The notes beneath the pieces were generated by a model. That model was not told the origin of the DNA. It was given only the letters and a program-made list of their open reading frames with translations, and made no database searches. A stretch of 64,000 bases of DNA from a virus (taxonomy: Duplodnaviria > Caudoviricetes), in the IMG/VR virus record IMGVR_UViG_3300024284_000007, positions 23,380 to 87,379 of that record; one strand, given 5' to 3'. Below, in pieces: positions 1 through 56,996 of this stretch. Position 1 is the first letter of the stretch; every line of letters starts with the position of its first letter. The position numbers and the translations under genes are program-made.

Positions 1-1
1 G

Positions 2-325
2 GGTGCTCACGCTTCGATCGCCTGGCTGACTAACAGGATCACGAATTCTTCCAATGCTCTCATGTCGGTTACGCCAGCGGATTTCTCTGCAGCGGAATGG
101 GAATGGCTTCGGGGGAATTTCCGCAAGATCTGCTGCGTTGTCAGTTCCGAGCAGGAGCTGCTCGACCTGTGTGATGCAGCGAAGGAAGCGGATCTGATCT
201 ATGAGCTGATCGAGGACTCTGGACTGACTGAGTTCAGCGGGGTTCCCACGTTCACCGCAGCGGCATTCGGTCCTGACTTCGATGAGAACCTGGATCCCAT
301 TACGGGTCATCTGGTACTCTACTGA
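2..325 (+). CDS. pth2: Peptidyl-tRNA hydrolase, Pth2 family (5' end lies outside the window)
   Basis: Open from position 2: GAHAS (AQxxHA-like), FRKICCVV, LIEDSGLTEF, TAAAFGP, ITGHLVLY; all Pth2 hallmarks. Confidence 0.85.
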   Translation, partial: GAHASIAWLTNRITNSSNALMSVTPADFSAAEWEWLRGNFRKICCVVSSEQELLDLCDAAKEADLIYELIEDSGLTEFSGVPTFTAAAFGPDFDENLDPITGHLVLY

Positions 326-414
326 CATGCTCCAAGAAGAAGTCGGCAGGGCGTCGCTGGCGTGACCCTGCTAGTCCGGGCGGATAATAAGTCCTGGGGT
401 AGAGCGCCAGCAAT

Positions 415-498
415 GGAGAGTGAACGAGCCAGGGTGCTCGGCCTTCCTGCTAAGAAGTGCGCGGGTGATACCGTGGATTTCGAGTATCCCGCTCTCCT
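415..498 (+). tRNA. tRNA-Ser(GCT)
   Basis: Acceptor GGAGAGT/GCTCTCC, anticodon arm CTTC-CTGCTAA-GAAG, long variable arm, T loop TTCGAGT. Confidence 0.85.
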
Positions 499-499
499 C

Positions 500-844
500 A
501 TGGCTAAGGAACTCGCGTTCTCGGTAACCCGCAAGGACCTGAAGATCGAGACTTTTTCTGCGGGCGGACCGGGAGGACAGCATCAGAACACCTCCAACAC
601 GGCGGTGCGCATCACGCACCTCGCGTCAGGGGCGTCAGGAGTGGCGAGAGACTCCCGCAGCCAGCATCAGAACATGAAGAACGCCCTGCGCCGCATGGCG
701 GAATCGGGTAAGTTCAGGGTGTGGGTGAACCGGCAGCTGCTGGGGAATACCGAGCCGCCGGAGATTGCTGTACAGCGGCAGATGCACCCCTCGAACCTGC
801 TGATCATGGGCAGGGAGGAGGGGAGATGGAAGATCATCGACTAG
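500..844 (+). CDS. RF-1 (GGQ) domain peptide-release-factor homologue (ArfB/PrfH-like)
   Basis: SAGGPGGQHQNTSNTAVRITHLASG motif. ATG500 chosen because the upstream in-frame part is the tRNA-Ser gene. Confidence 0.85.
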   Translation: MAKELAFSVTRKDLKIETFSAGGPGGQHQNTSNTAVRITHLASGASGVARDSRSQHQNMKNALRRMAESGKFRVWVNRQLLGNTEPPEIAVQRQMHPSNLLIMGREEGRWKIID

Positions 845-2695: not shown

Positions 2696-2768
2696 GGCGA
2701 CTAAGCTCACTGGTGTGAGCGGCACCCTCATAAAGTGCACGAGGTGGGTCCGATTCCCGCAGTCGCTA
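2696..2768 (+). tRNA. tRNA-Met(CAT), elongator (Ile2 not excluded)
   Basis: GGCGACT/AGTCGCT, anticodon loop CTCATAA, T loop TCCGATT. Confidence 0.8.
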
Positions 2769-4688: not shown

Positions 4689-4761
4689 GGACGCTTAGCT
4701 CAGCGGTATGAGCGCTGCCCTGACACGGCAGAGGGCGGCGGTTCGATCCCGTCAGCGTTCA
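4689..4761 (+). tRNA. tRNA-Val(GAC)
   Basis: GGACGCT/AGCGTTC, CTGCC-CTGACAC-GGCAG, GTTCGATCC. Confidence 0.9.
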
Positions 4762-4778
4762 CTCGGCTGGAAGAAAAG

Positions 4779-4868
4779 GCTGCTAGCGAGCCGGATCTTC
4801 CCGCGCCGGGGATAGAGACCCGGCTCCGGCGGCAGACGTGCCGTGCGTTCCATGAGCACATGGGCAGC
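4779..4868 (+). ncRNA. Candidate four-way-junction RNA of unknown family
   Basis: GCTGC/GCAGC closes three hairpins: GAGCCGG/CCGGCTC, CGGCA/TGCCG, CCATG/CATGG. Confidence 0.4.
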
Positions 4869-4876
4869 TGGACCAA

Positions 4877-4954
4877 GGGGATGAATGGTTCGACCGGGCT
4901 GCAAGACCGCATGCGGAACAGCCCGGGACCAGGGCTCGGTACCCTGCATCTCCA
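4877..4954 (+). ncRNA. Minimal tmRNA-like RNA (tRNA-like domain only, no mRNA-like domain)
   Basis: GGGGATG/CATCTCC acceptor with G3.U70 and A73; tmRNA D-loop analogue AATGGTTCGAC; P2a CGGGCTG/CAGCCCG; GGAC linker; T arm; only 17 nt between the P2a strands. Confidence 0.75.
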
Positions 4955-4998
4955 CTGCCGGGGGTTAAGCGGCGCAAGCCTCAAACCCCCGGCGTCCA

Positions 4999-5070
4999 GC
5001 CCCCATGGTGAAAGGGATATCATGGGAGATTACGAATCTCCCGGTGCCTGTTCGAGTCAGGCTGGGGGTG
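4999..5070 (+). tRNA. tRNA-Arg(ACG)
   Basis: GCCCCCA/TGGGGGT, GGAGA-TTACGAA-TCTCC, T loop TTCGAGT. Confidence 0.85.
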
Positions 5071-5084
5071 CGGAAAGGAAGAGA

Positions 5085-5291
5085 ATGAAGGCACTGAAGC
5101 CGCGTCCGGCAAAACGCGGGTACGTCATCATCGGGGGACTGTCAGTACTGGCGGTGTGGGCATGCACGCAGGCTCTCCACGTCACTCCGCTGGTAGCCCT
5201 GGTCATCGTCGTCGCGGGCATAATCCTGCTCGCGGGAGCATTCTCCCTGCGTTCCCGGGGAATTAACCGGGAGGTGAAACGCAGGAGATAA
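5085..5291 (+). CDS. Small 2-TM membrane protein
   Basis: RBS AAGGAAGAG, two hydrophobic helices, basic ends. Confidence 0.65.
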   Translation: MKALKPRPAKRGYVIIGGLSVLAVWACTQALHVTPLVALVIVVAGIILLAGAFSLRSRGINREVKRRR

Positions 5292-8134: not shown

Positions 8135-8575
8135 ATGGCTGACTGGGATGCCCGCTGGCTGGATCTCGCCGGGGAAGTGGCAAAATGGAGCAAGGACCGC
8201 TCTACCAAGGTCGGGTGCATCGTCGTCGGGGACGGGAAGCGGCTGCTGTGCTGCGGGTACAACGGCTTCCCCCGGGGGATTGATGATGATACCGCCGACC
8301 GTCATGAGCGCCCGCTGAAATACATGCTCACTGAGCATGCCGAGAGAAACGCCATCTACAATGCCGCCCGGGAGGGCGTGGATCTGCATAACTCGGTGAT
8401 GTACAGCACCCTGTATCCCTGTGCCGACTGCGCTCGCGGCATCATCCAGTCAGGAATAGCGGAAGTGGTCACCCGTGAGCCGGACTGGAACCTCCCGATA
8501 TGGGGCTTCAGCTTCACGGTTTCCCGGATCATGCTGCAAGAGGCGGGCGTTCATGTCCGTCTCGTCGCGCCTTAG
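8135..8575 (+). CDS. Deoxycytidylate (dCMP) deaminase
   Basis: SKDRSTKVGC, GYNGFPRG, HAERNAI and PCADC Zn motifs. Confidence 0.92.
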   Translation: MADWDARWLDLAGEVAKWSKDRSTKVGCIVVGDGKRLLCCGYNGFPRGIDDDTADRHERPLKYMLTEHAERNAIYNAAREGVDLHNSVMYSTLYPCADCARGIIQSGIAEVVTREPDWNLPIWGFSFTVSRIMLQEAGVHVRLVAP

Positions 8576-23366: not shown

Positions 23367-23867
23367 TCAGGGGTCGTACTTGCGGAACTCGTCCCGTCCC
23401 GCATCAGCGAGAGAGCCGTCATCGACGGCTTCCTGCGTGGTCGGGCTGAGATAAGGGTGCGCGGGGATCTCCAGGACGTCGTGGAACCAGCCCTTGCGCG
23501 GGGAGCCGCTGTCCTTCCAGTGCAGCTTGTCCCTGTTCAGGGCGCTGACCACGCAGCCGAATTCGGTGACGCGGGAGTAATCGGAGTCGTTGCCGACCCA
23601 GGCGAACGCCCGGAGCCCCCCCCGCGAGGCGGGGATCCAGTACATGGCGTCGGCGAGCTTCCCGGTGGACATCGCGGGCGGCTCTCCCGGGCGGGCGCGG
23701 TGCCATGCGCCGGACGGTTTCTTCGTCCGGCGCAGGGTCACCCGCTGCGCCCGCTGCGCGATGTGCTTCGCCAGGGCGGTGGCAGCTGGCGCAGCTCCCT
23801 GGGCGGAGAGCTTGGCGACTTCCTGCCAGAGCCTGATGTTCTCCTCGAACGAGATCTCGCCGCTCAC
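23367..23867 (-). CDS. Tail-completion protein (HK97 gp10-like)
   Basis: PPAMSTGKLA, EFG, HPYLSPT-type motifs. Confidence 0.6.
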   Translation of the reverse strand: MSGEISFEENIRLWQEVAKLSAQGAAPAATALAKHIAQRAQRVTLRRTKKPSGAWHRARPGEPPAMSTGKLADAMYWIPASRGGLRAFAWVGNDSDYSRVTEFGCVVSALNRDKLHWKDSGSPRKGWFHDVLEIPAHPYLSPTTQEAVDDGSLADAGRDEFRKYDP

Positions 23868-25006
23868 ATCCTGCGCGCCTCCATGCGCTTCAGCAGTTCG
23901 CTGACTGCGGGCTTCATGTATTTCTCTGAGACGTTCTCCACGGAATACTCCCCGGCGAACTCACGGAGCCTGGCGTGATCGACCTGGTTACGGTCCTGGT
24001 ATGCTTTCTCGTAGGCGATGGCGATCTCGGTAACTGACGGTTTCACCCACCATCCTTTGTGGACGCCGTTCCAGAACGGCTCGCCATTGACCTCGGTGCC
24101 TAGCGGGTTCAGCTCGCTCATCGAGGACGCGGCGGTAGTGATGACCGGGGTCCCGCAAGCCTGCGCCTCCATGATGGGAATCCCGAAACCCTCCCCGAAT
24201 GCGCAGGCGGAAAGGACATCCAGCATGCCGTACCATTCCGCGAGTTCCTCCGGGCGGATCAGCCCTGCCGCGTAGCGGTACTGGTCCACCGTCCTCACCA
24301 GGTGGGTGATGCCCAGGGACTCGGCGAGAGCCTCCAGGTCCTGCCCGCCATCGGTGTGCACTCCCGAATGCAGTGCCAGCAGGGCATCCGGGTGGCTCTT
24401 CGCGAATCTCGCGAATGCCAGCATCTGCTCGGGCAGGCCTTTCCTGATCGCGTCGTTGTTGGCACCGTTGATGCCCACCACGAAAGCGTCCGGGTCCACG
24501 CCCATCATCTCGCGCAGTTCCTTCTTGCCTTCCGGGAGGGCAAAGACGTCCAGGTCGATCCCGTGCGGGACGTAGACCGGATCGAAGCCTGCCGCGCGGA
24601 ACCGGTCGTAGCCGAACCGGGACATCGCGATCAGCTGGGCTCCGGAAGCCTCCACGTTCACCCGGTCCGCCGTGGACATCGGGCGGCAGTCCGCCGGGAG
24701 CCAGTGCGCTAGCGGCAGTTCCGAAAGAAGATTCGGGTCGAGGACCCATACGTCACCCAGGGTGATCACCAGGTCAGGACTGGTCATCTTGCAGTGCTGG
24801 TGCAGTGACGTCGTGCAGTAATTGCTCCCGAAGCCGGGCAGGACGGGCATCCCGTTCCACTGGGTCGGGGATCCGGACAGCCCCCAGTAGGAGCTGATGA
24901 TCACCTCGTGCCCCATCCTGAGCAGTTCCTGTGTCCAGACGGCAGTCTGGGTGCCGTAGCCGGACGGTGCCCAGGGGGCACAGGAATGCCAGACGATCTT
25001 CGCCAC
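23864..25006 (-). CDS. Glycosyltransferase, GT4 family
   Basis: PSGYGTQ, VPHGID, EGFGIPIMEAQACGTPVI. Confidence 0.9.
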   Translation of the reverse strand: MAKIVWHSCAPWAPSGYGTQTAVWTQELLRMGHEVIISSYWGLSGSPTQWNGMPVLPGFGSNYCTTSLHQHCKMTSPDLVITLGDVWVLDPNLLSELPLAHWLPADCRPMSTADRVNVEASGAQLIAMSRFGYDRFRAAGFDPVYVPHGIDLDVFALPEGKKELREMMGVDPDAFVVGINGANNDAIRKGLPEQMLAFARFAKSHPDALLALHSGVHTDGGQDLEALAESLGITHLVRTVDQYRYAAGLIRPEELAEWYGMLDVLSACAFGEGFGIPIMEAQACGTPVITTAASSMSELNPLGTEVNGEPFWNGVHKGWWVKPSVTEIAIAYEKAYQDRNQVDHARLREFAGEYSVENVSEKYMKPAVSELLKRMEARRM

Positions 25007-27906: not shown

Positions 27907-28897
27907 CTAGATCGTGCGCTTGTACGGATGGCAGAGCAGTTCCGCCTCCGTGGTGAGCCCTACGACGTCGCCGCCAGTGCTCTGGGAGTGACCGCCGATG
28001 TCGTGGATGGTGGTCGTGGTGGCACCCCTGGTCAGCGCCTCGGCGGTGGCGAAGTGGATGCACGCCTGCTCAATACTGGCGGGCAGGGTGGTGATGATCG
28101 TGCCCGCCACGTGCGGGTAGACCAGCGGCGCGGACAGGCTCAGGGTCCCCGGTCCCGCCGCCGCCGACGCGGAGTTCGCGTGGACGGTCTCCTGCTGTCC
28201 GGAGTCCTTGATCACCCCGGTAGCCCCCGTGGTGCCCTGGTAGCTGGTGATGCCCCAGCCGGTGACGTCGCTGACGGACAGGGTGGTCGCGCCAGCGAGA
28301 GCGCTGGAGGTGATCTCCGCGTGCGGGAAGCCGTTGATGTAGCTCACCTGGATGACATAGCCGTTGCGCCCGAAGCACCAGTTGATGAATCCCGGTCCGA
28401 TGATGATCGCCTGCCCGCCGTAGGCGTCGGTGGCAGGCGCGACCGAGTTGAAGATCCCGAACGGGGGGTACTCCGGCTCCGCCCATCCCGTGGGCAAGGT
28501 GGTCCACTGCCGGGGCCACGTGTTGTTGGGGCACACCTGGACCTGGGTGACTTCCAGGATGGGGAAGCGGGAGAGGATAGCCCTGGCATTGGACCCGGTA
28601 TTGTTCCAGTAGGGCGTGCGGGTCGCTCCGCCTGCGCCCGGTCCGACCGTCACCCGGAAATCCGGACCCCGGAGCACCTCGATATCGACGGTGGCTCTCA
28701 GGATCTGGTTGCAATAGCTATCGACCTTGGCAGTGGCTCTCGCGCACATGTTCCACCACTCGGCTTCGTTCTGCGCGGGAGTGATGTCATCTCCTACGGG
28801 AATGCTGGTCCAGTCCTAAATCGATACCCGTAGGAGCAGTCAGGAGCGTCACCGGGGAAATGTACGGTGCTGTGATCAGCGGCATCGGGGTAGTCAT
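27907..28897 (-). CDS. Head-tail adaptor; frame interrupted by a 7-nt insert TTAGGAC (28813-28819)
   Basis: N-part MTTPMPLITAPYISPVTLLTAPTGID starts at an ATGA overlap; the C-part frame continues WTSIPVGDD...MCARATAKV. Confidence 0.75.
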
Positions 28898-33204: not shown

Positions 33205-34321
33205 CGATCCTCGCTTCAGGAAGGGGGATGATGAACTTGCCTTCGTAGCCTTTTTCGCGGAGCTTCGGGATCAGGTCATCCGCGATATGCCAGGACAGCA
33301 GGAGGGCGTACTGGGGCTGATCCTCGAAAAGCTTCTTCTCGTCAACGACCGGGATATCCGTGCCGGGAATGCATGTCCCGATCTTCTCGCTGGAAGAGAC
33401 TTCGCAGACATATTCCAGGAAGCCCGCGATATCTGCGTAATTAATCAGCGGGGTAGCGCGGGTGGTTGCCCCGATACCGCAGATGCTCCAGCCGTCCCGC
33501 CATAGCGGCTGCATCAGGTCGAACAGGGCATTGCGGGCTTTCCAGGCACGGGAAGCCAGTTTTCCCTGTTCCTTCACTGCCCAGATGCGGAAAGATCCGC
33601 CGTGAGTGGGGATCTTCTCGATGTCCTCGATGATCAGCCCATGAAAGGCGAGCAGGCGGGACAGGGAGGCTACCGAGTAATAGCGGAGGTGCTCATGGTA
33701 GACGGTATCGATCTGCAGCCCGTTCGCAATGGATGCCCAGTCGTGGTTCTCGGTGACGAAAACGCCGTCGTCGGCAAGCAGGGTCAGCACTCCGGCAAGG
33801 AAGTCATGCGGGTCCGGGACGTGTGCCAGGACATTCGCCGCAGCGATGACTTTCGCCTTGCCATTGTCCCGGCGGATGACCTTCGCGATCTCGGAGGTGA
33901 AGAATTCCTGGTACGTGGCGGTAATGCCCTTACTCAGGCACTTACCCACCTGATTGGTAGGCTCGACGGCTACCGTGGTAAGTGACTTCACCGGGAGCAG
34001 TGACAGGAAAGTGCCGTCATTAGCCCCGATATCCACGACGAGATCATTCATGCACAGCCACGGCTTGACCTTTTCTGCCAGCTCGGCGAAGTGCTCTCGC
34101 ATCGCCCTGGTATTGCCGGTGGCGTAAGGGTGATCCTCCGGGAACATGTCGCGCTGATCCGGGATGTAGCTCAGCTGGACCAGCGTGCAGTTCTCGCACT
34201 TGAGCAGCTTCAGCGGGTATCTCTGCCCGTTATCATGCTCCGCGAGAGGCTGCATGCCCATGTCGAGAACGGGAGCCATGTCCCTCTCCCCGCAGGAGCC
34301 GCAGCGGAGGATCTCAGCCAT
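33197..34321 (-). CDS. NDP-hexose C-methyltransferase (class I SAM, Zn-binding N-terminus)
   Basis: CGSC...LDMGMQPLA...CENCTLVQL, DIGANDG, NVLAHV, DTVYHEH, THGGS, GIGATT. Confidence 0.88.
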   Translation of the reverse strand: MAEILRCGSCGERDMAPVLDMGMQPLAEHDNGQRYPLKLLKCENCTLVQLSYIPDQRDMFPEDHPYATGNTRAMREHFAELAEKVKPWLCMNDLVVDIGANDGTFLSLLPVKSLTTVAVEPTNQVGKCLSKGITATYQEFFTSEIAKVIRRDNGKAKVIAAANVLAHVPDPHDFLAGVLTLLADDGVFVTENHDWASIANGLQIDTVYHEHLRYYSVASLSRLLAFHGLIIEDIEKIPTHGGSFRIWAVKEQGKLASRAWKARNALFDLMQPLWRDGWSICGIGATTRATPLINYADIAGFLEYVCEVSSSEKIGTCIPGTDIPVVDEKKLFEDQPQYALLLSWHIADDLIPKLREKGYEGKFIIPLPEARIVD

Positions 34322-35282
34322 TCGCGCGATACCACGATCCGGTGCGGGTGACGCCTTCCTCGAAAGTCACCTTAGGACCGGTCCAGCCCAGCGCGGTGAT
34401 CTTCGAGATGTCCGGGCACCTTCTCGGCGGGCTTCCCTGCGGGAGTTTCCCGGGAATGACCTTGATTTCCCGGTCGTAACACCACCAGGCTACCTCGCGG
34501 GCTACTCCGGAAATGGTGCGCTCTTCCAGCGTGCCCATGTGGTAGACGTTCATGTGCTCACCCGCGTCAAGCAGGATGATGAACTGGTCTACGCAGTCAT
34601 CGATATAGCAGAAGCTGCGGGTTTCCTCCCCGGAGCCCTGGATCGGGAAGGGAATGGCTCCCTCATGATCCTGGACCAGGGAGTTCATCCGGATGCAGAA
34701 TTCCGGGATGACGTGTTCCCTGCCCATGTCGGGACCGTAGATGTTATGCGGTCTCGTGATGATAAGCCTGTCGAGAATGCCTGTTCTCGCCCAGGCGAGG
34801 GACATGATCTCGCAGGCGATCTTCCCTCCGCCGTAGGAATAGCGGGGGTTGAGGACATCCGGAACTACGAGCGGGATGTCTTCCGGCGTGGGCACTTGCG
34901 GTGCCACCTGGTACGCCTCCGAGGAGGAAACCAGGAGGAGTTCGCTGCACCCCGTCGCCTCGCAGGAGGCAAGGACATTAAGCATCCCCCGCATCGCCAC
35001 GTCGAGCACCTGCCGGGGCTCGGCGTAGAAGGTCTGCGTTCCCTGGAGATAAGCCAAATGCACGACGGAATCGCATCCGTGCATCGCGGCACGGACATTC
35101 TTCTCGTCGCGGATATCACCCTGGAAGATAGTGCACGGAACGCCCTTGAGGCGGTCCGCCTGCCCTCTGGACATGTCATCGAGGACATTGACCTCGCTCC
35201 CGAGGGAAACGAGCTTCTTCACGAGATTGCTCCCGATGAAACCCGCTCCCCCGGTCACGAGATATTTCCTGCCGTTTCCCAT
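34314..35282 (-). CDS. NAD-dependent NDP-sugar epimerase/dehydratase (SDR)
   Basis: VTGGAGFIGS, SSSEAY, YGGGK, RPHNIYGP. Confidence 0.9.
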   Translation of the reverse strand: MGNGRKYLVTGGAGFIGSNLVKKLVSLGSEVNVLDDMSRGQADRLKGVPCTIFQGDIRDEKNVRAAMHGCDSVVHLAYLQGTQTFYAEPRQVLDVAMRGMLNVLASCEATGCSELLLVSSSEAYQVAPQVPTPEDIPLVVPDVLNPRYSYGGGKIACEIMSLAWARTGILDRLIITRPHNIYGPDMGREHVIPEFCIRMNSLVQDHEGAIPFPIQGSGEETRSFCYIDDCVDQFIILLDAGEHMNVYHMGTLEERTISGVAREVAWWCYDREIKVIPGKLPQGSPPRRCPDISKITALGWTGPKVTFEEGVTRTGSWYRANG

Positions 35283-35301
35283 GAGGAAATGGTAGCAGAA
35301 A

Positions 35302-35811
35302 CTAAACCACGCCTGCGGTAACCCGCAGGGAGCCCTGCTGCACGACGGCAGTGGAAACGGTAACGCTCGCCGCGTGGTCATACAGCAATCCGGTGGAGAC
35401 GGTGACAGCAGTCGCGGTAGTGCCCGCGACGACCGCCAGTTCCTGTCCCTTGCCGGTATTGCCGATGATCAGCGTGGTCCCGGCTGGCATTCCCGAGGTG
35501 GTGCCCAGGGTAAAGGAAGTGGCGCCAGCGGAGAGGGCTACTGCGGTCAGGGTATTGCTGACCGTTCCCGGGACAACGTTAGAGCACGCGTAAAGGGTGC
35601 TCGCGGCGTTCTGGAATTCAACCGGGCGATTGCCCGGGTAAATCGGGAACCCGTTATATGGCGAGACGTTGCTCTGTCCCACCCAGACGACGTTAGAGCC
35701 CAGGTTGAAGAAGCGCACCGTAGACGGCGCGTTCGGCGTCGGGGTGAAAACCCAGTTGGGGATCGTAGTGGGGTTGACCACCTGATCGACCCCTGCACCG
35801 AGGTTAGGCAT
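35302..35811 (-). CDS. Thr-rich putative capsid decoration protein
   Basis: Beta-rich; VWVGQSNVSPYNGFPIYPG resembles the paralog motif. Confidence 0.65.
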   Translation of the reverse strand: MPNLGAGVDQVVNPTTIPNWVFTPTPNAPSTVRFFNLGSNVVWVGQSNVSPYNGFPIYPGNRPVEFQNAASTLYACSNVVPGTVSNTLTAVALSAGATSFTLGTTSGMPAGTTLIIGNTGKGQELAVVAGTTATAVTVSTGLLYDHAASVTVSTAVVQQGSLRVTAGVV

Positions 35812-42263: not shown

Positions 42264-42357
42264 TGTACGCCCAGAGACTGGCAAGCCCCCATCCTGTCCG
42301 TTCGGAAATAATATCCGCTTCGCGGATCAGGTAATACCAGTCAAGGTGCCGCTTCAC
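42085..42357 (-). CDS. Hypothetical protein
   Basis: ATGA-type overlap with the portal stop. Confidence 0.5.
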   Translation of the reverse strand: MKRHLDWYYLIREADIISERTGWGLASLWAYINHDDYDGALRKLRDLLEQKIPLKDGSRQVMRHEAEYRLWKKRSGLDSPPSAEVGLDHP

Positions 42358-45300
42358 AGGACTACCCCAGCTCCGTAGACCTGACCGGGCTGCGTTACGG
42401 CTGTTCCCGCTTCCTCGAACTTGAGATGAACTTGCTCTACTTCAGGTCGAGGCTCCCAGTATTTGCAAACCCCTTCGGGAGCTATCTCACCAGCGACGAG
42501 ATCGCATGTTCCATCGTGAAACATAACGCAGTTTCCGCAACGATGATCACCTGTGGCAACGCGATAATCAGCGCTCCACTGTGATACTTTTGGGCGATTT
42601 ACCGACTTATTTCCGGGATCAGAGCCCTGGTGAATCTGCTTGGTGTGAGTTTCCAGCGCCGCCATGCGGTCCCGGGGGCTGATGTTGCCCACGTAAGCAA
42701 GGACCGGCTGGTTCAGCTTGTAGTGCCGCGCCAGGGCTCGGTGATGACCGTCCACGATGAACGCCCTGTTGGAATTCGGCTCCTGCACGAGAACGGAAGG
42801 AGAAGTGTTCCCCTCTCCTGACCTGATGCCCTTCGCGAAGCGGTTCACCGCGTCCGGCTGGTGACTTGCCGCCCACTTGTCTTCGTCGTCGGTATCGACG
42901 CGCTCCCAGGGCACATTGACCGGACCGATCCAGCGTGCCCGCTTGACCCACTCGATGGCGTCGTTGGGGAAGTTCTTCTCCAGCTGGGCGTAGACGTGCC
43001 GCCATTCCACGGGATTGGCGTCGGTGACGTGCTGAGCACCCTTCCCGGCGACGACATTGCTTTCTTCCTCCGGATCCCAGTGCTGGACGAAGACGGAAGG
43101 ATCGGCTGTCTCGGGAAGCCCCGGGCGCGGCGTCGCGGGCTTCGGGGTCTTCGGACCGGGAGTGCTGACCACCGGATGCGGGGCGACCTTAGGGGATCCT
43201 ACCGAGATGGCTCCCGGTCCGGGATCGCTGCCGATTCCCCCTTCAGGCCATTTGTCCTGCTCTTCCTCTCCCTGATCGGGGAACCTGCTCGCAGGACGGT
43301 TGCGTACACGCCGTTTCGGGTATTCATCATCGGAGGAGCCTCTCGGGTAGAGATGCGCGCCAGCCGAGTCAGCGTGATCCGGATCGCTTCTCGGAGGCTC
43401 CCCGCCAGCCGAAGGTCCCGGGACAGCCCCAGGTCCCGCGTCAGGCCACTCAGCACCGCCCCGCTGGGGATAAGGCCACCTGGAGCCCAGTCCCGCGCCG
43501 TGGCGGTCGGGGTCATCGATGGTGATCTGCTGCCCGGTCTCGGTGACCATGTTCTGCAGGACCTTAAGCGACTGGTCTTTCAGTGCCTGCTCAAGATGCG
43601 GGGTCTCCGGTCCGTCCCAGTCATCGCGGAACTTCGGGGAGAGATCAAGATCGCTGATCTCCTTGCGGCGGAACCAGCCTGTCCCTGCGGTCTCCTCGGG
43701 GGTGCTGCCGTTCATGGCGGGAGTGAACATCGCGGGCGATTCGCACAGGTACAGGTAAGCCAGCTTGCCGTCTTCTTCGAGGTGCGTGAAGTCCCTTATG
43801 ATATTGAGAGCCGGGATCTCGCCGATTTCCTCGGTGGTCTCGCGGAATGCGGCGGTCATTCCCTCCTCGCCGACATGGGCGGTTCCGCCGGGCATTCCCC
43901 AGGTCCCGTCATCGCGCTGCTGGAGGAGGTAGCGCCATTTCCCGTCATCATCTCTTGCGCGGATCAGCAGCCAGGCGACGCGGGATTCGTCTTCGCTCTT
44001 ATGCGCCTGCGGCGGCATGGCGTCGGTTCCGGCGGGAAGGGGGACGCACCGGCAGTTCGGGTGACAGGGACCGGAGAGACCGCCGTGGGAAAACGAGGCG
44101 TCCAGGGGGATAACCCCGTCAGAGGAGGCGTCCTTGCAGATATCGCAGGCGTCGTCGGGGGCTATGGCGAGATGCTTGTGACTGACCCCGTTATCGCGGT
44201 AGCACTGCATCGCGCCGTCGTTCATGGCTCGGGCTACCTCAGTCCTGGCGATGATCTCGCTGCGGGCATTGGAGTTCCCCAGCCCGGTCCGGGAGACCTG
44301 CTCCAGCCAGTGAGCGCCCTCGGTGTTCAGGAAGTCCTGAAGGTGATCTCCGTAATCCCCTGCGCTTTTCCCGAGAAGTTCTCCGGCGGAATCATACCCG
44401 AGCTTCCACGCCTTGGTCCACATAGGGGTCATCGCCGCGAGGAAAGTCTCTTTCGTGGCGTCGGAGATGAGCCCGTGGAGAGTCCCCACGGAGACGTACA
44501 TCTTCCCCGAGGCGGCATCCTTGCGGATCTGCGAGCCCTTGATCTCGGCGTCCTGGAATGCCTGGCTGATTTCCTCTTTGTAATGCCCGACGAGACCGAG
44601 GTCCTGCTGCCAGCCGGGGAACTGAGAGGAAGACTTCACGGCTGCCGCGATAAGCTCAGGGGCTTCCGAGAAAGGGACAGGTCCTTGCAAATAGCCGCTG
44701 ACCGGCGTCATGTCCACCCACGGTGAGAGATCAAGCTGGTCAGTGATGCTCTCGGATTTTGCCTCGATGTCCATCGCCCGCCCGATGGCGGTATCCAGCA
44801 GCACGCCCTTCGCGATATCCTCCGCGATCCTGGCGAGGGTGCCGTTGGTGATGTTCACCGGCTCCCAGGAAGTGATCTCCCTGCCCTTCCTGAGGTGCCT
44901 TCTCAGCGCGTCCAGCTCGGAAGCTGCCGCTGCCTTGTTGCGGATCCGGTTCTGAGTGGGAGCGAGTCCCTGCCCTCTCTTGCGGGAGCCGTTGTTGCCA
45001 GTTCTTCCGGTACCTCCGGTAGAACCCCGCTGGGGGCGCAGGGTCCTGGTAGCCCCCTGTGCCGCCGCGTGCTGGGGAGTGGAGGAAGGATCGGGTCGCG
45101 AGGGGGAGACCGGGGCGGAATGGGTGCCGTTCGGCTTGGTGGCGGACGTGCCCTTCTTCGGCTTGGCGGGACTCTTCTTCCCGGAGGAGGAGCTTCCCTG
45201 ATTCTGCCCCTGGGTAAGCATCGCCTGGATGAGCTTGGGTGCTTCGGAGAACGGGATGGGTCCGTTCTGGGTCATCACGATCGGCTCGGAGGTCTCCTGC

Positions 45301-46853
45301 AGTCCCCACGGGGGCATGTCCAGCCGGTCCCGGACCTCATCGATGGAGGCAACGCCGTTCTGGATCTGCTCGACGCCGAGAGAGGTAATCGCCTGCTTGT
45401 CCTGGTCGTTGACCAGCCCCTCGAACTCGAACTGCATGTCCGGCTGGTCGCAGATGTCCCGGAGGATGTGATTGAAGATGTCCGCGATCCACTTGAGCAA
45501 GGGCAAGGTGGACTTGCGGGACTTCACGTCACGGGCTTCCTCGCCGGAGAACCTCACCCCGGAGGCGGAAGGGCCGGTGGGAGTCCCCCCGATGTCGGGG
45601 ATGATGCCCAGTTCCGAGGGCTGCACGTCGAATGCCATGCAGACCTGGTTCATGACGAGATAGTCGAAAGAATCGCTCAGGTCAACCGGGCGCTGCGGCT
45701 CTACCTTACTTCCGGGAGGCAGCACGACGACCTTCAGGTGATATGCCGGATCACCTGCGAGGGCATTGAGGGCATTCTGCAGCTCGCCGATCTGAGTAGG
45801 TGTTATATTACTATCGCCCGGCGATATGTAAACGGCGGGAACCGTTCCTTCAGTGAAATAGTCGAGCTGGAATTCCTGCTTCTGCAGACCGCTGATGATA
45901 GGCAGCAGCGCCCTTTCAACCGGGGGGAACCCGTAGGGAGTCTCTCTCGTCGCCCAGTAGGGGGCATAAAGCATGATATCGGAGTTGAAATCATTGACTT
46001 CAGCCCCGGCGAGACCAGCTTCCTCGATATCGGAGCCTGTTGCCAGCGTCATGTAGTCGCTGCGAGGGACTCCGTAAAGAAACTGCTGGTAAGCAGGGGC
46101 AGGGGGTCTCGGGTGCCCTCCGTGGATGTCGATCAGGGGGCGGATCGTAGGTCCGGACACAAGATTGAGCGAGTCCAGGTTGCTGCCGAGGAGTCCTCTT
46201 CCGCCCATTCCGAAGGAAGCGCCGTATTTAGGCCGGAAAATGAGCGCGAGGGCATCATAGACGAAGATTTCCTCAAGGAACGCATTGAGGAAGGTGTCGA
46301 AATTCCAGAAATCCGGGTCAGGACGCCGGAAGAACCTCTTGGCTTTCGCCTTGCGCTCCCCGAAATCCCGCATGGCGCTGCGGTCGCCCTGGTATGCCTT
46401 CGCGGCATCAGTAGTGAGGGTGATATCCCAGCGCAGCCCCCGGATCTCCTCGCAGCGCAGCTCAATGGCAGCCCTGGCGACCGAGTACTTCTGGGCGAGG
46501 GTGCGGAGCTGGTCGAAAGACGCCAGCTTGAGCCCTTCCGACCCGGGAGGAGTCGGGAGGTTCCAGGCATTGCGGTACTGCCACCACCTGGGACCGGGGA
46601 ATGTCCCGCCAGGCGGCGGCTCATCGACCGGCGTCGGCTGGATCGGGGACATCGGGGCGAAAGCCCCGTCAGTGAACACTCTCGGATCGCGGGGAAGAAA
46701 AGGACCGTAAGTGTTGGCGTAGGAGTTGTTGTAGTACATCTCCGCCTGGACCGGGCTGATCCTGCCCATGCCGGAAGCCTGCGGGGCAGCGGTGTAACGC
46801 GCCCCTCCGGGAATGGACTTGATGGCACTGACGATCGCGCCGGGCCGGGTCAA
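42354..46853 (-). CDS. Portal protein fused to MuF, NUDIX, ParB-like and HiPIP-like domains
   Basis: Portal-like N-terminus (YGFPPVERAL, YFTEGTVP, DEVRDRL); IARTEVARA...PCHPNCRC; GGTAHVGE...AAFRETTEEIG; IVDGHHR; CGNC...C...GVCKYW. Confidence 0.85.
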   Translation of the reverse strand: MTRPGAIVSAIKSIPGGARYTAAPQASGMGRISPVQAEMYYNNSYANTYGPFLPRDPRVFTDGAFAPMSPIQPTPVDEPPPGGTFPGPRWWQYRNAWNLPTPPGSEGLKLASFDQLRTLAQKYSVARAAIELRCEEIRGLRWDITLTTDAAKAYQGDRSAMRDFGERKAKAKRFFRRPDPDFWNFDTFLNAFLEEIFVYDALALIFRPKYGASFGMGGRGLLGSNLDSLNLVSGPTIRPLIDIHGGHPRPPAPAYQQFLYGVPRSDYMTLATGSDIEEAGLAGAEVNDFNSDIMLYAPYWATRETPYGFPPVERALLPIISGLQKQEFQLDYFTEGTVPAVYISPGDSNITPTQIGELQNALNALAGDPAYHLKVVVLPPGSKVEPQRPVDLSDSFDYLVMNQVCMAFDVQPSELGIIPDIGGTPTGPSASGVRFSGEEARDVKSRKSTLPLLKWIADIFNHILRDICDQPDMQFEFEGLVNDQDKQAITSLGVEQIQNGVASIDEVRDRLDMPPWGLQETSEPIVMTQNGPIPFSEAPKLIQAMLTQGQNQGSSSSGKKSPAKPKKGTSATKPNGTHSAPVSPSRPDPSSTPQHAAAQGATRTLRPQRGSTGGTGRTGNNGSRKRGQGLAPTQNRIRNKAAAASELDALRRHLRKGREITSWEPVNITNGTLARIAEDIAKGVLLDTAIGRAMDIEAKSESITDQLDLSPWVDMTPVSGYLQGPVPFSEAPELIAAAVKSSSQFPGWQQDLGLVGHYKEEISQAFQDAEIKGSQIRKDAASGKMYVSVGTLHGLISDATKETFLAAMTPMWTKAWKLGYDSAGELLGKSAGDYGDHLQDFLNTEGAHWLEQVSRTGLGNSNARSEIIARTEVARAMNDGAMQCYRDNGVSHKHLAIAPDDACDICKDASSDGVIPLDASFSHGGLSGPCHPNCRCVPLPAGTDAMPPQAHKSEDESRVAWLLIRARDDDGKWRYLLQQRDDGTWGMPGGTAHVGEEGMTAAFRETTEEIGEIPALNIIRDFTHLEEDGKLAYLYLCESPAMFTPAMNGSTPEETAGTGWFRRKEISDLDLSPKFRDDWDGPETPHLEQALKDQSLKVLQNMVTETGQQITIDDPDRHGAGLGSRWPYPQRGGAEWPDAGPGAVPGPSAGGEPPRSDPDHADSAGAHLYPRGSSDDEYPKRRVRNRPASRFPDQGEEEQDKWPEGGIGSDPGPGAISVGSPKVAPHPVVSTPGPKTPKPATPRPGLPETADPSVFVQHWDPEEESNVVAGKGAQHVTDANPVEWRHVYAQLEKNFPNDAIEWVKRARWIGPVNVPWERVDTDDEDKWAASHQPDAVNRFAKGIRSGEGNTSPSVLVQEPNSNRAFIVDGHHRALARHYKLNQPVLAYVGNISPRDRMAALETHTKQIHQGSDPGNKSVNRPKVSQWSADYRVATGDHRCGNCVMFHDGTCDLVAGEIAPEGVCKYWEPRPEVEQVHLKFEEAGTAVTQPGQVYGAGVVL

Positions 46854-54911: not shown

Positions 54912-56543
54912 CTAGATGTCCCCGCGCGAGAAGTCTGCCAGCATCGCGGGGACGTTGCTGTCAAAACCTGCAACATCCAGGCTTCCGGGGTCTGCCGGGT
55001 CCGCGATGCTGCACTGGGTTGCGGTCATGCCAACAACCGCGAGGCGGGCATTGATTCCCGTCGCGTTGCGGTACTGCACCAGAGCCTGGTGCGGGTGGAT
55101 CCGTCCCGCCCAGGTCTCGTTGTCCGTGTAGACCTGGAAGGTATCCACCTCGATCTTGTTCTTCTGCGCCCAGATCATCGGCAGCGAGCAGTCCGTGCCG
55201 CCGAACGGGAGATTCGCGATTACCCGCACGGCATCATCCAGGCGCTGTTTCGGGGAGATCTTCAGTCCCGAGATGCCTTCACCCCTGCCGTTGCCGCTGG
55301 TGAAGCCGGTGATGAGGTAGTTCTCCTCCGTCGCGGCGGTGACCAGGGACAGGGCGGCGGAGATGTCTCTGGGGGACAGTCCCGGAGTTCCGGTGTTCCC
55401 CCACGTCATGGATCCGCTGACGTCGAGAGCCAGCATGGTCCGCTTCCCGCTTGGCGTGACTGCCTTGAACGCCAGGTAGAAGGCGTCATTGAAGGCATCG
55501 ATGACCTGCGGGACCGGGGTCCAGGTGCTGCCACCGTACATGGACTGACCGGCAGCGTAGGTCTTCATCGCGATCAGCAGGCTCACCGGATGGACCCGCG
55601 CACGGATCAGCTTGTCCTGGTCGCGGAGCTGGTCCGTGACCTTCTTCAGGTGCTCCGACATGGGAGCCAGGACCCCGAGCCGGGTCAATGTCGGGAGCTG
55701 GCGGATCAGGGCAGTCATGGGCATCCCCTGGTCAATCAGCGCACGCCAGAAGTCCGCGTGGGTGCGCGCCTCGTCGGGGAACGCCTCCCAGGGAAGTCCC
55801 GGGATGTTCCTGACCAGGTTGACCCATGCCTTCGCGCGGGCGGTTCCCGTGGCGCGTTTCTCGATCTCCCGTGCCTGCTGGTAACCCCTGATCACCTGGG
55901 GCAGGGCAATATCCGTCTCCCGCCCGCAGGCGAAGTCGAAAAGAGCCTTCAGCTGCGGGTCGGAGGTCTTCGGGTGAGCGAGGCGCAGCAGGTCCTTGTG
56001 CGTCCAGCCGTTGCGCTGGCGGTACTTGATCAGCTGGCGCGCCAGCTCCTCCGGGTCCTTATCCAGGTACCAGCCGCTGACCGCCCTGCGCGAACCCCGG
56101 GTCCATCCGCCGAACAGCTCGCGGTATTCCGCCCAGGCGTACAGGTGGGTGCCGATACGAGCCACCTCCGGCAGGATCTCCAGGGCGCGCTTGCGACCGT
56201 CATCATCTCCGAGAACACTGGCGGCGGCAACGGCGTAGAGAGCCGGGTCATTTCGCGGAGCCCTGCCTGCCACGGAGATATCCCGGGCGGCCCCGGCGAG
56301 GGCAGTGGCGTTCTCCCGGGCAACCCTCTTCACGACGTCGGTTGCATCCTTGGTCAGCTTCTTCTCGCCGACGTAGAAGGTGCCCCCGGTGGTGCCGAGA
56401 GTGAGGAAGCGGTAGATCTGCGGGAAGTTCCCGAGCTGGAAAGTCCAGCCCCCAGCGTTGTTTTTCACCTGCCGGGGATCCGCCTGCTCTGACTGGGCAG
56501 TCTTCTTGGTGCCCGTGGAGAGCAGCGGGTCATTGCGTGGCAT
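54912..56543 (-). CDS. rsr: Ro60/Rsr orthologue (TROVE plus vWA)
   Basis: NNAGG, RFLTLGT..GTFY, KYRQRNGWTHKDLLRLAHP, PMTALIRQL, LALDVSGSM, YTDNETW. Confidence 0.95.
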   Translation of the reverse strand: MPRNDPLLSTGTKKTAQSEQADPRQVKNNAGGWTFQLGNFPQIYRFLTLGTTGGTFYVGEKKLTKDATDVVKRVARENATALAGAARDISVAGRAPRNDPALYAVAAASVLGDDDGRKRALEILPEVARIGTHLYAWAEYRELFGGWTRGSRRAVSGWYLDKDPEELARQLIKYRQRNGWTHKDLLRLAHPKTSDPQLKALFDFACGRETDIALPQVIRGYQQAREIEKRATGTARAKAWVNLVRNIPGLPWEAFPDEARTHADFWRALIDQGMPMTALIRQLPTLTRLGVLAPMSEHLKKVTDQLRDQDKLIRARVHPVSLLIAMKTYAAGQSMYGGSTWTPVPQVIDAFNDAFYLAFKAVTPSGKRTMLALDVSGSMTWGNTGTPGLSPRDISAALSLVTAATEENYLITGFTSGNGRGEGISGLKISPKQRLDDAVRVIANLPFGGTDCSLPMIWAQKNKIEVDTFQVYTDNETWAGRIHPHQALVQYRNATGINARLAVVGMTATQCSIADPADPGSLDVAGFDSNVPAMLADFSRGDI

Positions 56544-56612: not shown

Positions 56613-56749
56613 CCGCGCGGATGTGTTCATGGACACCGGGTTTAGTGCTCTGCCATTAAGCTACAGCCTCCACGAAGGGAGGCTGGCGGGAATCGAACCC
56701 GCACCCTCTTCTCCCAGAAAGATAACCGACATCCGTCCGACCCGCGCGG
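56613..56749 (-). ncRNA. Y RNA-like unit 1 (YrlA type with tRNA-like module)
   Basis: Closing stem GCGGGTCGG/CACATCCGC; T arm GCGGG-TTCGATT-CCCGC, looped acceptor CAGCCTCC/GGAGGCTG, D arm TAGCTTAATGGCAGAGC. Confidence 0.85.
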
Positions 56750-56764
56750 ATTCCTCCTGATGGC

Positions 56765-56833
56765 CCTGCAGATGTGTGAATGGGAACCGGGTTGCATCTG
56801 TATGGTGATAACCGATCCCCTCCGACCCGCAGG
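56765..56833 (-). ncRNA. Y RNA-like unit 2 (minimal, 69 nt)
   Basis: Same two closing stems and TTATC motif around a ~16-nt insert. Confidence 0.75.
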
Positions 56834-56840
56834 AGCTTGT

Positions 56841-56978
56841 GATGGCAGATATGTTCTGTGAGAACCGATGTTTAGGCACTCTGCCAATTGAGTTACCCCG
56901 GTTTTACCCGGAGACGGGACTCGAACCCGCAACTTCCCGCTTAAAAGGCGATAACCGATCCTCGTCCGACCCGCCATC
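56841..56978 (-). ncRNA. Y RNA-like unit 3 (YrlA type with an extra Lys-like anticodon hairpin)
   Basis: TCGC-CTTTTAA-GCGG, T arm TTCGAGT, looped acceptor, D arm ACTCAATTGGCAGAGT. Confidence 0.85.
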
Positions 56979-56996
56979 AGGTCTATGTAATTGTGC

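Follow-up and report, generated by a model that had tools for sequence, protein, structure and literature searches.

The phage DNA analysed here carries, at positions 4877–4954 on the plus strand, a TLD-only mini-tmRNA gene of 78 nt (up to the discriminator A73), i.e., a complete tmRNA tRNA-like domain (TLD) without a tag reading frame and without pseudoknots. Judged by its sequence, the element is a TLD-only (or "CDS-less") tmRNA of the DS6A type, named after the mycobacteriophage, and it probably interferes with or short-cuts ribosome rescue in the host. All positions refer to the window, which is the whole 64,000-nt stretch under study and which stems from an 87-kb record of an uncultured virus from soil metagenomes, estimated to be roughly 71% complete. 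While TLD-only phage tmRNA as such was known, we add a carrier clade with a large tRNA array, a Pth2 peptidyl-tRNA hydrolase and a GGQ protein, as well as an atypical T loop and a reading of the element as a deletion at the GCAUG word of helix 2, and we find Pth2 to be no general partner. The identity, homology and structure of the element, the selection acting on it and its genomic context are shown by the analysis.

From its 5′ end, the element reads GGGGATG, AATGGTTCGAC, CGGGCTG and a 17-nt insert, followed by CAGCCCG, GGAC, CAGGG, CTCGGTA, CCCTG, CATCTCC and A, and this string, as quoted in a first-pass annotation made from the letters alone, was retrieved exactly at 4877–4954 (+). Its minimum free energy (MFE) fold consists of the acceptor stem, helix 2 with a hairpin, and the T arm (–34.8 kcal/mol, z = –2.25), with the individual parts as listed in Table 1. 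The alanine identity set is present in full (i.e., a 7-bp acceptor with G1-C72, G2-C71, G3.U70 and A73), and the element moreover carries the stemless D analogue ending in UUCGAC and the GGAC junction closing helix 2a that are features of the tmRNA TLD. The first-pass annotation had considered every TLD feature to be present, which is correct for the acceptor, G3.U70, A73, the D analogue and GGAC, but not for the T loop, which is a non-canonical CUCGGUA.

Table 1. Parts of the mini-tmRNA and neighbouring genes in the window.
Feature	Position	Strand	Remarks
Pth2 peptidyl-tRNA hydrolase, 3′ part	1..325	+	Full ORF begins 62 nt before the window
160-aa GGQ / RF-1-domain protein (P0001)	362..844	+	Directly downstream of Pth2, within the tRNA region
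tRNA-Val(GAC), upstream neighbour	4689..4762	+	ARAGORN and Rfam
Acceptor stem, 5′ strand GGGGAUG (G1, G2, G3)	4877..4883	+	Pairs 7/7 with 4947–4953
Stemless D-loop analogue AAUGGUUCGAC	4884..4894	+	11 nt, the shortest in the family
Helix 2a, 5′ strand CGGGCUG	4895..4901	+	Pairs with 4919–4925
Inner module CAAGA-CCGCAUGCGG-AA	4902..4918	+	A-rich internal loop plus 3-bp hairpin with CAUG loop (hairpin at 4907–4916)
Helix 2a, 3′ strand CAGCCCG	4919..4925	+	Fold and family covariation
GGAC junction ahead of the T arm	4926..4929	+	Same junction in the tmRNA consensus
T arm: stem CAGGG/CCCUG, atypical loop CUCGGUA	4930..4946	+	Stem pairs 5/5
Acceptor stem, 3′ strand CAUCUCC (U70), and discriminator A73	4947..4954	+	Sequence and family alignment
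tRNA-Arg(ACG), downstream neighbour	4999..5071	+	ARAGORN; synteny

An mRNA-like domain (i.e., a resume codon and a tag frame with a stop codon) is absent from the element, in which only the 17-nt insert is found and for which the ARAGORN tag search came back empty. The insert between the strands of helix 2a contains no TAA, TAG or TGA, and the sole stop triplet of the whole element is a TGA at element positions 6–8, in the acceptor/D-analogue region. Pseudoknots PK1–PK4 are likewise absent, as the element has no sequence to form them, and both the stop-triplet scan and the MFE fold bear out the earlier description of the insert as free of stops and pseudoknots. The window copy does not encode CCA, the bases 3′ of A73 being CTGCC. 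Since an independent soil metagenome contig is identical across 4850–5100, the sequence, including its odd T loop, is not an assembly error. Directly 3′ of the mini-tmRNA, a GC-rich hairpin (CCGGGGG...CCCCCGG) is located at 4958–4992 (+); no T run follows it, so that it is not a typical intrinsic terminator, some of its positions are kept in two syntenic contigs (L016 and L010), and it may be a processing or stability element.

When the Rfam tmRNA model RF00023 was scored directly, it matched the element from end to end (model positions 1–374) with 36.6 bits and an E-value of 1.4e-14, compared to 19.6 bits for the tRNA-Ala(GGC) of the same phage, which makes the match to the tmRNA model far beyond chance. 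Nevertheless, this score lies below the RF00023 gathering score of 47 bits, and a default Rfam scan at the gathering threshold reported nothing at the element site. ARAGORN made no tmRNA call there, and a permissive cmscan of 4760–5000 (241 nt, E ≤ 10) missed RF00023, yielding a permuted-tmRNA half-match and two chance hits. The Infernal and ARAGORN check that the first-pass annotation had proposed was thus positive with direct scoring, while ARAGORN and the filtered scans remained silent. A second RF00023 match in the genome, considered as a possible second mini-tmRNA, was rejected as the ordinary tRNA-Ala(GGC). The same discrepancy was seen for the family described below: 42 of the 50 mini-tmRNAs score above the Rfam gathering score when RF00023 is applied directly, but filtered cmscan and ARAGORN pass them over, and such genes are consequently under-reported in phage annotations.

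These scores also bear on the question whether the element is some other tRNA-like sequence, such as a tRNA-Ala of aberrant structure, a permuted tmRNA represented by its acceptor piece, an attP site copied from the 3′ end of host ssrA, or a decoy for a host defence factor sensing tmRNA or tRNA-like RNA. The permuted-tmRNA model does give a weak partial match on the 3′ half of the element (17.9 bits, E 0.066), tRNA-Ala genes weakly cross-match tmRNA models, and the existence of defence proteins with SmpB-like domains (PMC11090510) counts for a decoy. However, a tRNA-Ala (RF00005) was rejected because there is no D stem, no anticodon arm and no 7-nt anticodon loop, nor any tRNA call by ARAGORN or Rfam. 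Moreover, since the 5′ and 3′ TLD strands are both present in the standard order, with the 5′ strand upstream of the 3′ strand, the element is neither a permuted acceptor piece (the two-piece model RF04321 found nothing significant in the genome) nor an attP fragment of ssrA, and the 71%-complete record yielded no integrase. The tests made gave no link between the element and a defence system. We consider it very improbable that any of these readings applies.

The first-pass annotation had further suggested looking for homologues in other phages, and this search yielded DS6A and about 50 distinct relatives from uncultured phage contigs. Three IMG/VR pattern scans, in which the acceptor stem was left unconstrained, were combined with a parsing script and provided 49 distinct elements, and a covariance model (R1) was seeded from 14 family members, with the window and DS6A left out. 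R1 scored the window at 77.8 bits (E about 1e-15, end to end) and DS6A at 67 bits, compared to 30 bits or less for true tRNA-Ala genes (28 bits for one real tRNA-Ala). In a structural alignment of 52 sequences (50 distinct rows), standard pairs filled 98.4% of the pair cells, vs. 68% in shuffled and 36–52% in slid controls, and compensatory changes were found at 17 of the 21 pairs (50 distinct sequences). As this alignment was fitted to the model it favours pairing, a bias offset by the slid controls and the count of double changes, while a MAFFT alignment (A1), in which the 5′ acceptor strand was shifted, was excluded from the pair counts. Specifically, compensatory changes occur at all six modelled pairs of helix 2a, four of the five family pairs of the T stem covary, and so do acceptor pairs 4–7, whereas no variation at all occurs at G1-C72, G2-C71 and G3.U70 among the 50 distinct sequences. 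Homology and covariation thus support the structural part of the first-pass annotation, an intact TLD that lacks an mRNA-like domain.

Outside the stems, A73 is found in 49/49 parsed members, C74 in 46/49 and a full encoded CCA in 7/49. The GGAC junction is kept in 48 of the 49 (DS6A has GCAC), UCGAC is invariant in alignment A1, and the D analogues of the family measure 11–16 nt and end in UUCGAC. Members are 74–95 nt long, with 78–80 nt being commonest, and roughly half of them lie in or beside tRNA arrays, the other half standing alone. Two 95-nt members with a longer helix 2 insert were noted (L032:11235–11329 (+) and L025:11908–12002 (+)); on L032, ARAGORN calls a 644-nt permuted "tmRNA*" from the start of the element, with the tag AKQHGSTPA, which may be a false extension. 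Seven pattern matches on bacterial chromosomes included one genuine member, in Nonomuraea wenchangensis, the other six not being the element, and a mini-tmRNA was present in 2 of 151 sampled Actinomycetota. Mini-tmRNAs are rare in bacterial chromosomes, and they are common, though mostly unannotated, in phages.

The 17-nt insert corresponds to a conserved small hairpin, CCG-CAUG-CGG, that is common to DS6A and many relatives. Its exact inner core (pattern CCGCATGCGG) was found in 46 genuine viral members, 18 of the 64 matches to this pattern being chance occurrences in coding sequence, and a scan without any demand on the motif revealed GCAUGC-type hairpins in 11 of 22 distinct members, the remainder having other small hairpins. 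When the Rfam tmRNA consensus was placed on the full-length tmRNA of N. wenchangensis, the strands of distal helix 2 proved conserved, with the 5′ strand ...gggCAUGCC pairing with the 3′ strand AAGCAUGUAG.... Since GCAUGC is its own reverse complement, both strands of helix 2 carry the same word as a direct repeat, which in the full-length tmRNA flanks PK1, the tag frame and PK2–4. Deletion between the repeat copies would leave a ...G-CAUG-C... cap, as in the mini-tmRNA, from which we infer an origin by internal deletion. This suggests that the insert is the collapsed distal end of tmRNA helix 2, of which the mini-tmRNA keeps the conserved GCAUG element, and the hairpin-bearing subfamily probably descends from full-length tmRNA by internal deletion at the GCAUG repeat.

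The T loop of the window copy (CUCGGUA) differs from the UUCGAnU/UUCAAnU of 46/49 members at three of seven positions (i.e., 54, 58 and 60), with U55, C56 and G57 being kept. This atypical loop is the probable cause of the window copy remaining under the Rfam cut-off that most relatives pass. Given this loop and an RF00023 score among the lowest of the family, affinity for the partners of the RNA could be reduced. Departures in the T loop recur within the family, as non-canonical loops were also seen at L134:994–1073 (+) and L164:6796–6873 (+), which have GGCGGCA and GGCAGAA, respectively.

The mini-tmRNA of the window is embedded in a same-strand array of more than 25 tRNA genes, of which at least 17 lie in the window and others upstream of it. 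Within this array, window positions 2696–2768 (+) match the Rfam tRNA model with 43.8 bits in the absence of an ARAGORN call and may represent an unusual array tRNA. The order Val(GAC) – mini-tmRNA – Arg(ACG) – Val(UAC) – His – Tyr is also found in contigs L016 (115 kb) and L010 (135 kb). Among these three syntenic phages the element is 70–75% identical and the neighbouring tRNAs 60–80%, the spacers are 0 to 270 nt long and 16–49% identical, and the stems of the element differ via compensatory changes. By this pattern of conservation, the mini-tmRNA is maintained by selection and is not decaying. A DNA similarity search against cultured phages returned conserved tRNA segments only, a megablast of 13 kb gave no match, and a tblastn search with TerL gave at most 36% identity to any cultured phage, with the hosts of the matches spanning several phyla.

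The element might alternatively be a non-functional relic, i.e., a tmRNA gene truncated not long ago, or a fragment that the array has picked up and that drifts unselected. A deletion of the kind proposed, from one GCAUG word of helix 2 to the other, would give just this architecture, and the atypical T loop and sub-threshold Rfam score of the window copy also point that way. However, covariation is strong across the 50 sequences, position and tRNA-level conservation are kept in three diverged phages of which the spacers are unalignable, the stems pair perfectly, and the same sequence recurs in an independent metagenome, so that we deem a relic highly unlikely. The first-pass annotation had named a decaying fragment of a full tmRNA as one of the outcomes that would undo its reading; descent from such a tmRNA by internal deletion is indeed probable, but the evidence for selection contradicts decay.

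The DS6A tmRNA was listed as "TLD only" by Hudson, Lau and Williams (PMC4131195; also PMC11915505) and corresponds to tmID 11587 / Phage__Mycobacterium.9 of the tmRNA Website (PMC4131195, PMC11915505). We located it at 28478–28557 of JN698994 (28478–28560 for the 43.2-bit match), where it is unannotated in the record. The earlier notion that a phage TLD-only tmRNA lacks precedent outside protist mitochondria is thus overturned by DS6A and by the size of the family. Both elements are about 80 nt long with a GGGG... acceptor, G3.U70, A73, a stemless D analogue ending in UCGAC, a short helix 2a and a 5-bp T stem, both are devoid of a tag frame and pseudoknots, and neither phage has SmpB. They moreover have an inner motif in common (an A-rich loop, a CCGCAYGCGG hairpin and AC), which reads GAAAACCGCACGCGGUAC in DS6A and CAAGACCGCAUGCGGAAC in the window. 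In contrast, the junction of DS6A is GCAC and its T loop is canonical, where the window has GGAC and the atypical loop. The phages themselves are unrelated, DS6A being a 60.6-kb temperate actinophage in which the element stands alone (the only ARAGORN call in the 50 kb scanned was a doubtful 91-nt tRNA-Lys, some 14 kb from the element), whereas the window belongs to a large soil phage with the element inside its tRNA array and with Pth2 and the GGQ protein nearby. Relatives of the single published case thus occur in large, unrelated soil phages that carry tRNA arrays.

What the element has in common with full-length tmRNA (RF00023) is the TLD, namely the acceptor identity, the UUCGAC and GGAC elements and the T arm, together with the beginning of helix 2 and, from the distal part of this helix, the GCAUG word. 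It has no PK1–PK4, resume codon, tag frame or stop, and measures about 80 instead of about 350–400 nt. Full-length tmRNAs are known from phages (e.g., the mycobacteriophage Bxz1 group and Bacillus phage G; PMC4131195), yet none was found in the member records, where all RF00023 matches were about 80 nt. CDS-less tmRNAs have further been described from jakobid and oomycete mitochondria, and as forms of about 65 bp from Mallomonadaceae plastids (PMC11915505, PMC4131195, PMC3590771). Those of jakobids and oomycetes are accompanied by SmpB targeted to the organelle, and their proposed role is to deal with incomplete mRNAs (PMC11915505, PMC4131195). These organellar RNAs resemble the phage element in keeping the TLD without a tag message and in relying on SmpB encoded elsewhere, but they form a different lineage, derived from alphaproteobacterial two-piece or plastid tmRNA. 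Furthermore, in organelles the RNA has taken the place of the resident system, while that of the phage exists alongside the full tmRNA of the host and is probably in competition with it. Synthetic TLDs, in which the 5′ and 3′ ends of tmRNA are joined via a short capped helix 2, are also comparable and bind SmpB; examples are a Thermus thermophilus TLD capped with UUCG (PDB 2CZJ) and the TLD of Shimizu and Ueda 2006 (reviewed in PMC3929946). These are laboratory constructs, however, whereas the mini-tmRNA is a natural gene with a conserved rather than arbitrary cap (the CCG-CAUG-CGG hairpin).

With regard to protein partners, SmpB is absent from the window phage (in its 71%-complete record) and from all 25 larger member records, 12 of which are at least 90% complete. 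The full Pth2 ORF (G000:C1:23318–23701) matches PF01981 with 91 bits and phrog_1866, and is of the archaeal/eukaryotic type (91 bits with the NCBIfam Pth2 model, below its cut-off of 126 bits). The GGQ protein encoded downstream of it scores 65 bits with PF00472 and 114 bits with phrog_3122 ("RF-1 domain peptide chain release factor") and has an intact GGQ motif; its best NCBIfam match is the GGQ region of prfH, below the cut-off, while ArfB reaches just 27 bits. The protein may be a codon-independent release or rescue factor. Both genes lie 4.0–4.9 kb upstream of the mini-tmRNA in the same tRNA/translation gene region, and both occur together in the window phage and its closest relative (G008). 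Across the family, however, just 2 of the 51 mini-tmRNA records proved to have Pth2, namely the close syntenic relatives G008 and G012, and 11 of the 12 near-complete members lack it, while an RF-1 domain was found in 2 of 51 records and was absent from 10 of these 12. The two proteins are thus not family-wide partners of the mini-tmRNA. The coupling to Pth2 put forward in the first-pass annotation consequently rests on a genuine phage Pth2, but is no trait of the family.

Trans-translation is the main ribosome-rescue route of bacteria and an antibiotic target, and the elbow of tmRNA (UUCGAC ... GGAC) is the part bound by SmpB. For the window element, we infer expression, processing, charging, SmpB binding and a benefit to the phage. 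The mini-tmRNA would probably be transcribed together with the tRNA array and excised by the tRNA-processing enzymes of the host. Since CCA is not encoded, it would be added by the host as well (no CCA-adding enzyme was found in the 71%-complete record), and since the phage has no SmpB gene, the mini-tmRNA would have to use host SmpB. Having kept the alanine identity set and the SmpB-binding elbow, but offering no message for the ribosome to resume on, it would compete with the full-length tmRNA of the host for SmpB and, once charged, also for EF-Tu and for access to the empty A site where ribosomes have stalled. Such competition would hold down both ssrA tagging and normal trans-translation in the infected cell.

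We put the chances at about even that the main function of the mini-tmRNA is to compete with host tmRNA, both for SmpB, AlaRS and EF-Tu and for stalled ribosomes. For a molecule of the DS6A type, strong inhibition of tmRNA has been reported in E. coli, for which titration of SmpB is a suggested cause (PMC4131195, PMC11915505, citing Mao et al. 2009), and this inhibition is reported to work with or without chargeability. The sequestration of SmpB and EF-Tu that the first-pass annotation offered as an option is the published idea for the DS6A homologue (PMC4131195, PMC11915505). Because this reported inhibition constitutes the only functional data for the class, competition with host tmRNA is ranked first. 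Nevertheless, the identity set is invariant beside freely covarying acceptor pairs 4–7, which indicates that charging is selected, and inhibition regardless of charging, as reported, means that pure SmpB titration leaves the invariance of G3.U70 and A73 unexplained. This absolute conservation argues that charging matters besides SmpB titration; it points to a step in which AlaRS, EF-Tu or the ribosome takes part, and fits productive rescue equally well.

Productive ribosome rescue, either tag-free or with an alanine tail, is accordingly a possible reading, although we consider it rather unlikely. The alanyl-mini-tmRNA, with host SmpB and EF-Tu, would here enter the stalled ribosome and accept the nascent chain, after which, for want of a resume codon, the peptidyl-Ala-RNA would be released, repeated entry possibly first adding a template-free alanine tail. 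Release could occur on the ribosome through a GGQ factor (the protein at 362–844 or host ArfB) or after drop-off through Pth/Pth2, and the phage would thereby recycle ribosomes fast and without a host tag. The selection on charging speaks for such rescue, as do the co-occurrence of Pth2 and the GGQ/RF-1-domain protein in the window phage and G008 and the jakobid and oomycete CDS-less tmRNAs with their organelle-targeted SmpB (PMC11915505, PMC4131195). Moreover, template-free synthesis of polyalanine is reported for a TLD fragment in the presence of SmpB (PMC3929946, citing Shimizu and Ueda 2006), so that a charged mini-tmRNA can in principle accept a chain and translocate. In contrast, the rarity of Pth2 and of the RF-1 domain among the records implies that the release step would usually be host-supplied, and the sole in vivo report for this RNA type describes inhibition. 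Within the clade of the window phage, the neighbouring Pth2 and GGQ genes are more in keeping with a resolution of stalled ribosomes by the phage than with a mere block to their rescue, and the mini-tmRNA, GGQ protein and Pth2 might even form a phage-encoded, template-free rescue pathway, which we regard as doubtful. If it were true, ribosomes freed from the wreckage of host mRNA would serve phage translation without the ssrA tag and the coupled decay of mRNA and protein. Whether by competition with host tmRNA, which we favour, or by rescue, a natural and widespread class of phage RNA acting in trans-translation would be valuable as a tool and would offer insight into the way phages handle host translation.

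A number of further features were noted elsewhere in the window. A Ro60/Rsr orthologue is encoded at 54912–56543 (–) (NF041674, 511 bits; phrog_850), and at least two sub-threshold matches to YrlA (Y RNA-like) lie just upstream of it within 56614–56982 (–), i.e., at 56614–56736 (E 5.7e-5) and 56872–56938 (E 1.7e-5). The "tRNA-Lys(UUU)" that ARAGORN calls at 56905–56982 has its anticodon at the odd position 38, receives no Rfam tRNA call and overlaps a YrlA match; it probably represents a Y RNA module of tRNA-like form. A 1499-aa ORF at 42354–46853 (–) combines a portal (phrog_2662), a minor-head/MuF-like region and a NUDIX-like stretch into an unusually large portal fusion. Finally, a glycosyltransferase and an NAD-dependent sugar epimerase/dehydratase are found among the structural genes (23864–25006 (–) and 34314–35381 (–), respectively), and a dCMP/cytidine deaminase is encoded after the tRNA array at 8135–8575 (+).
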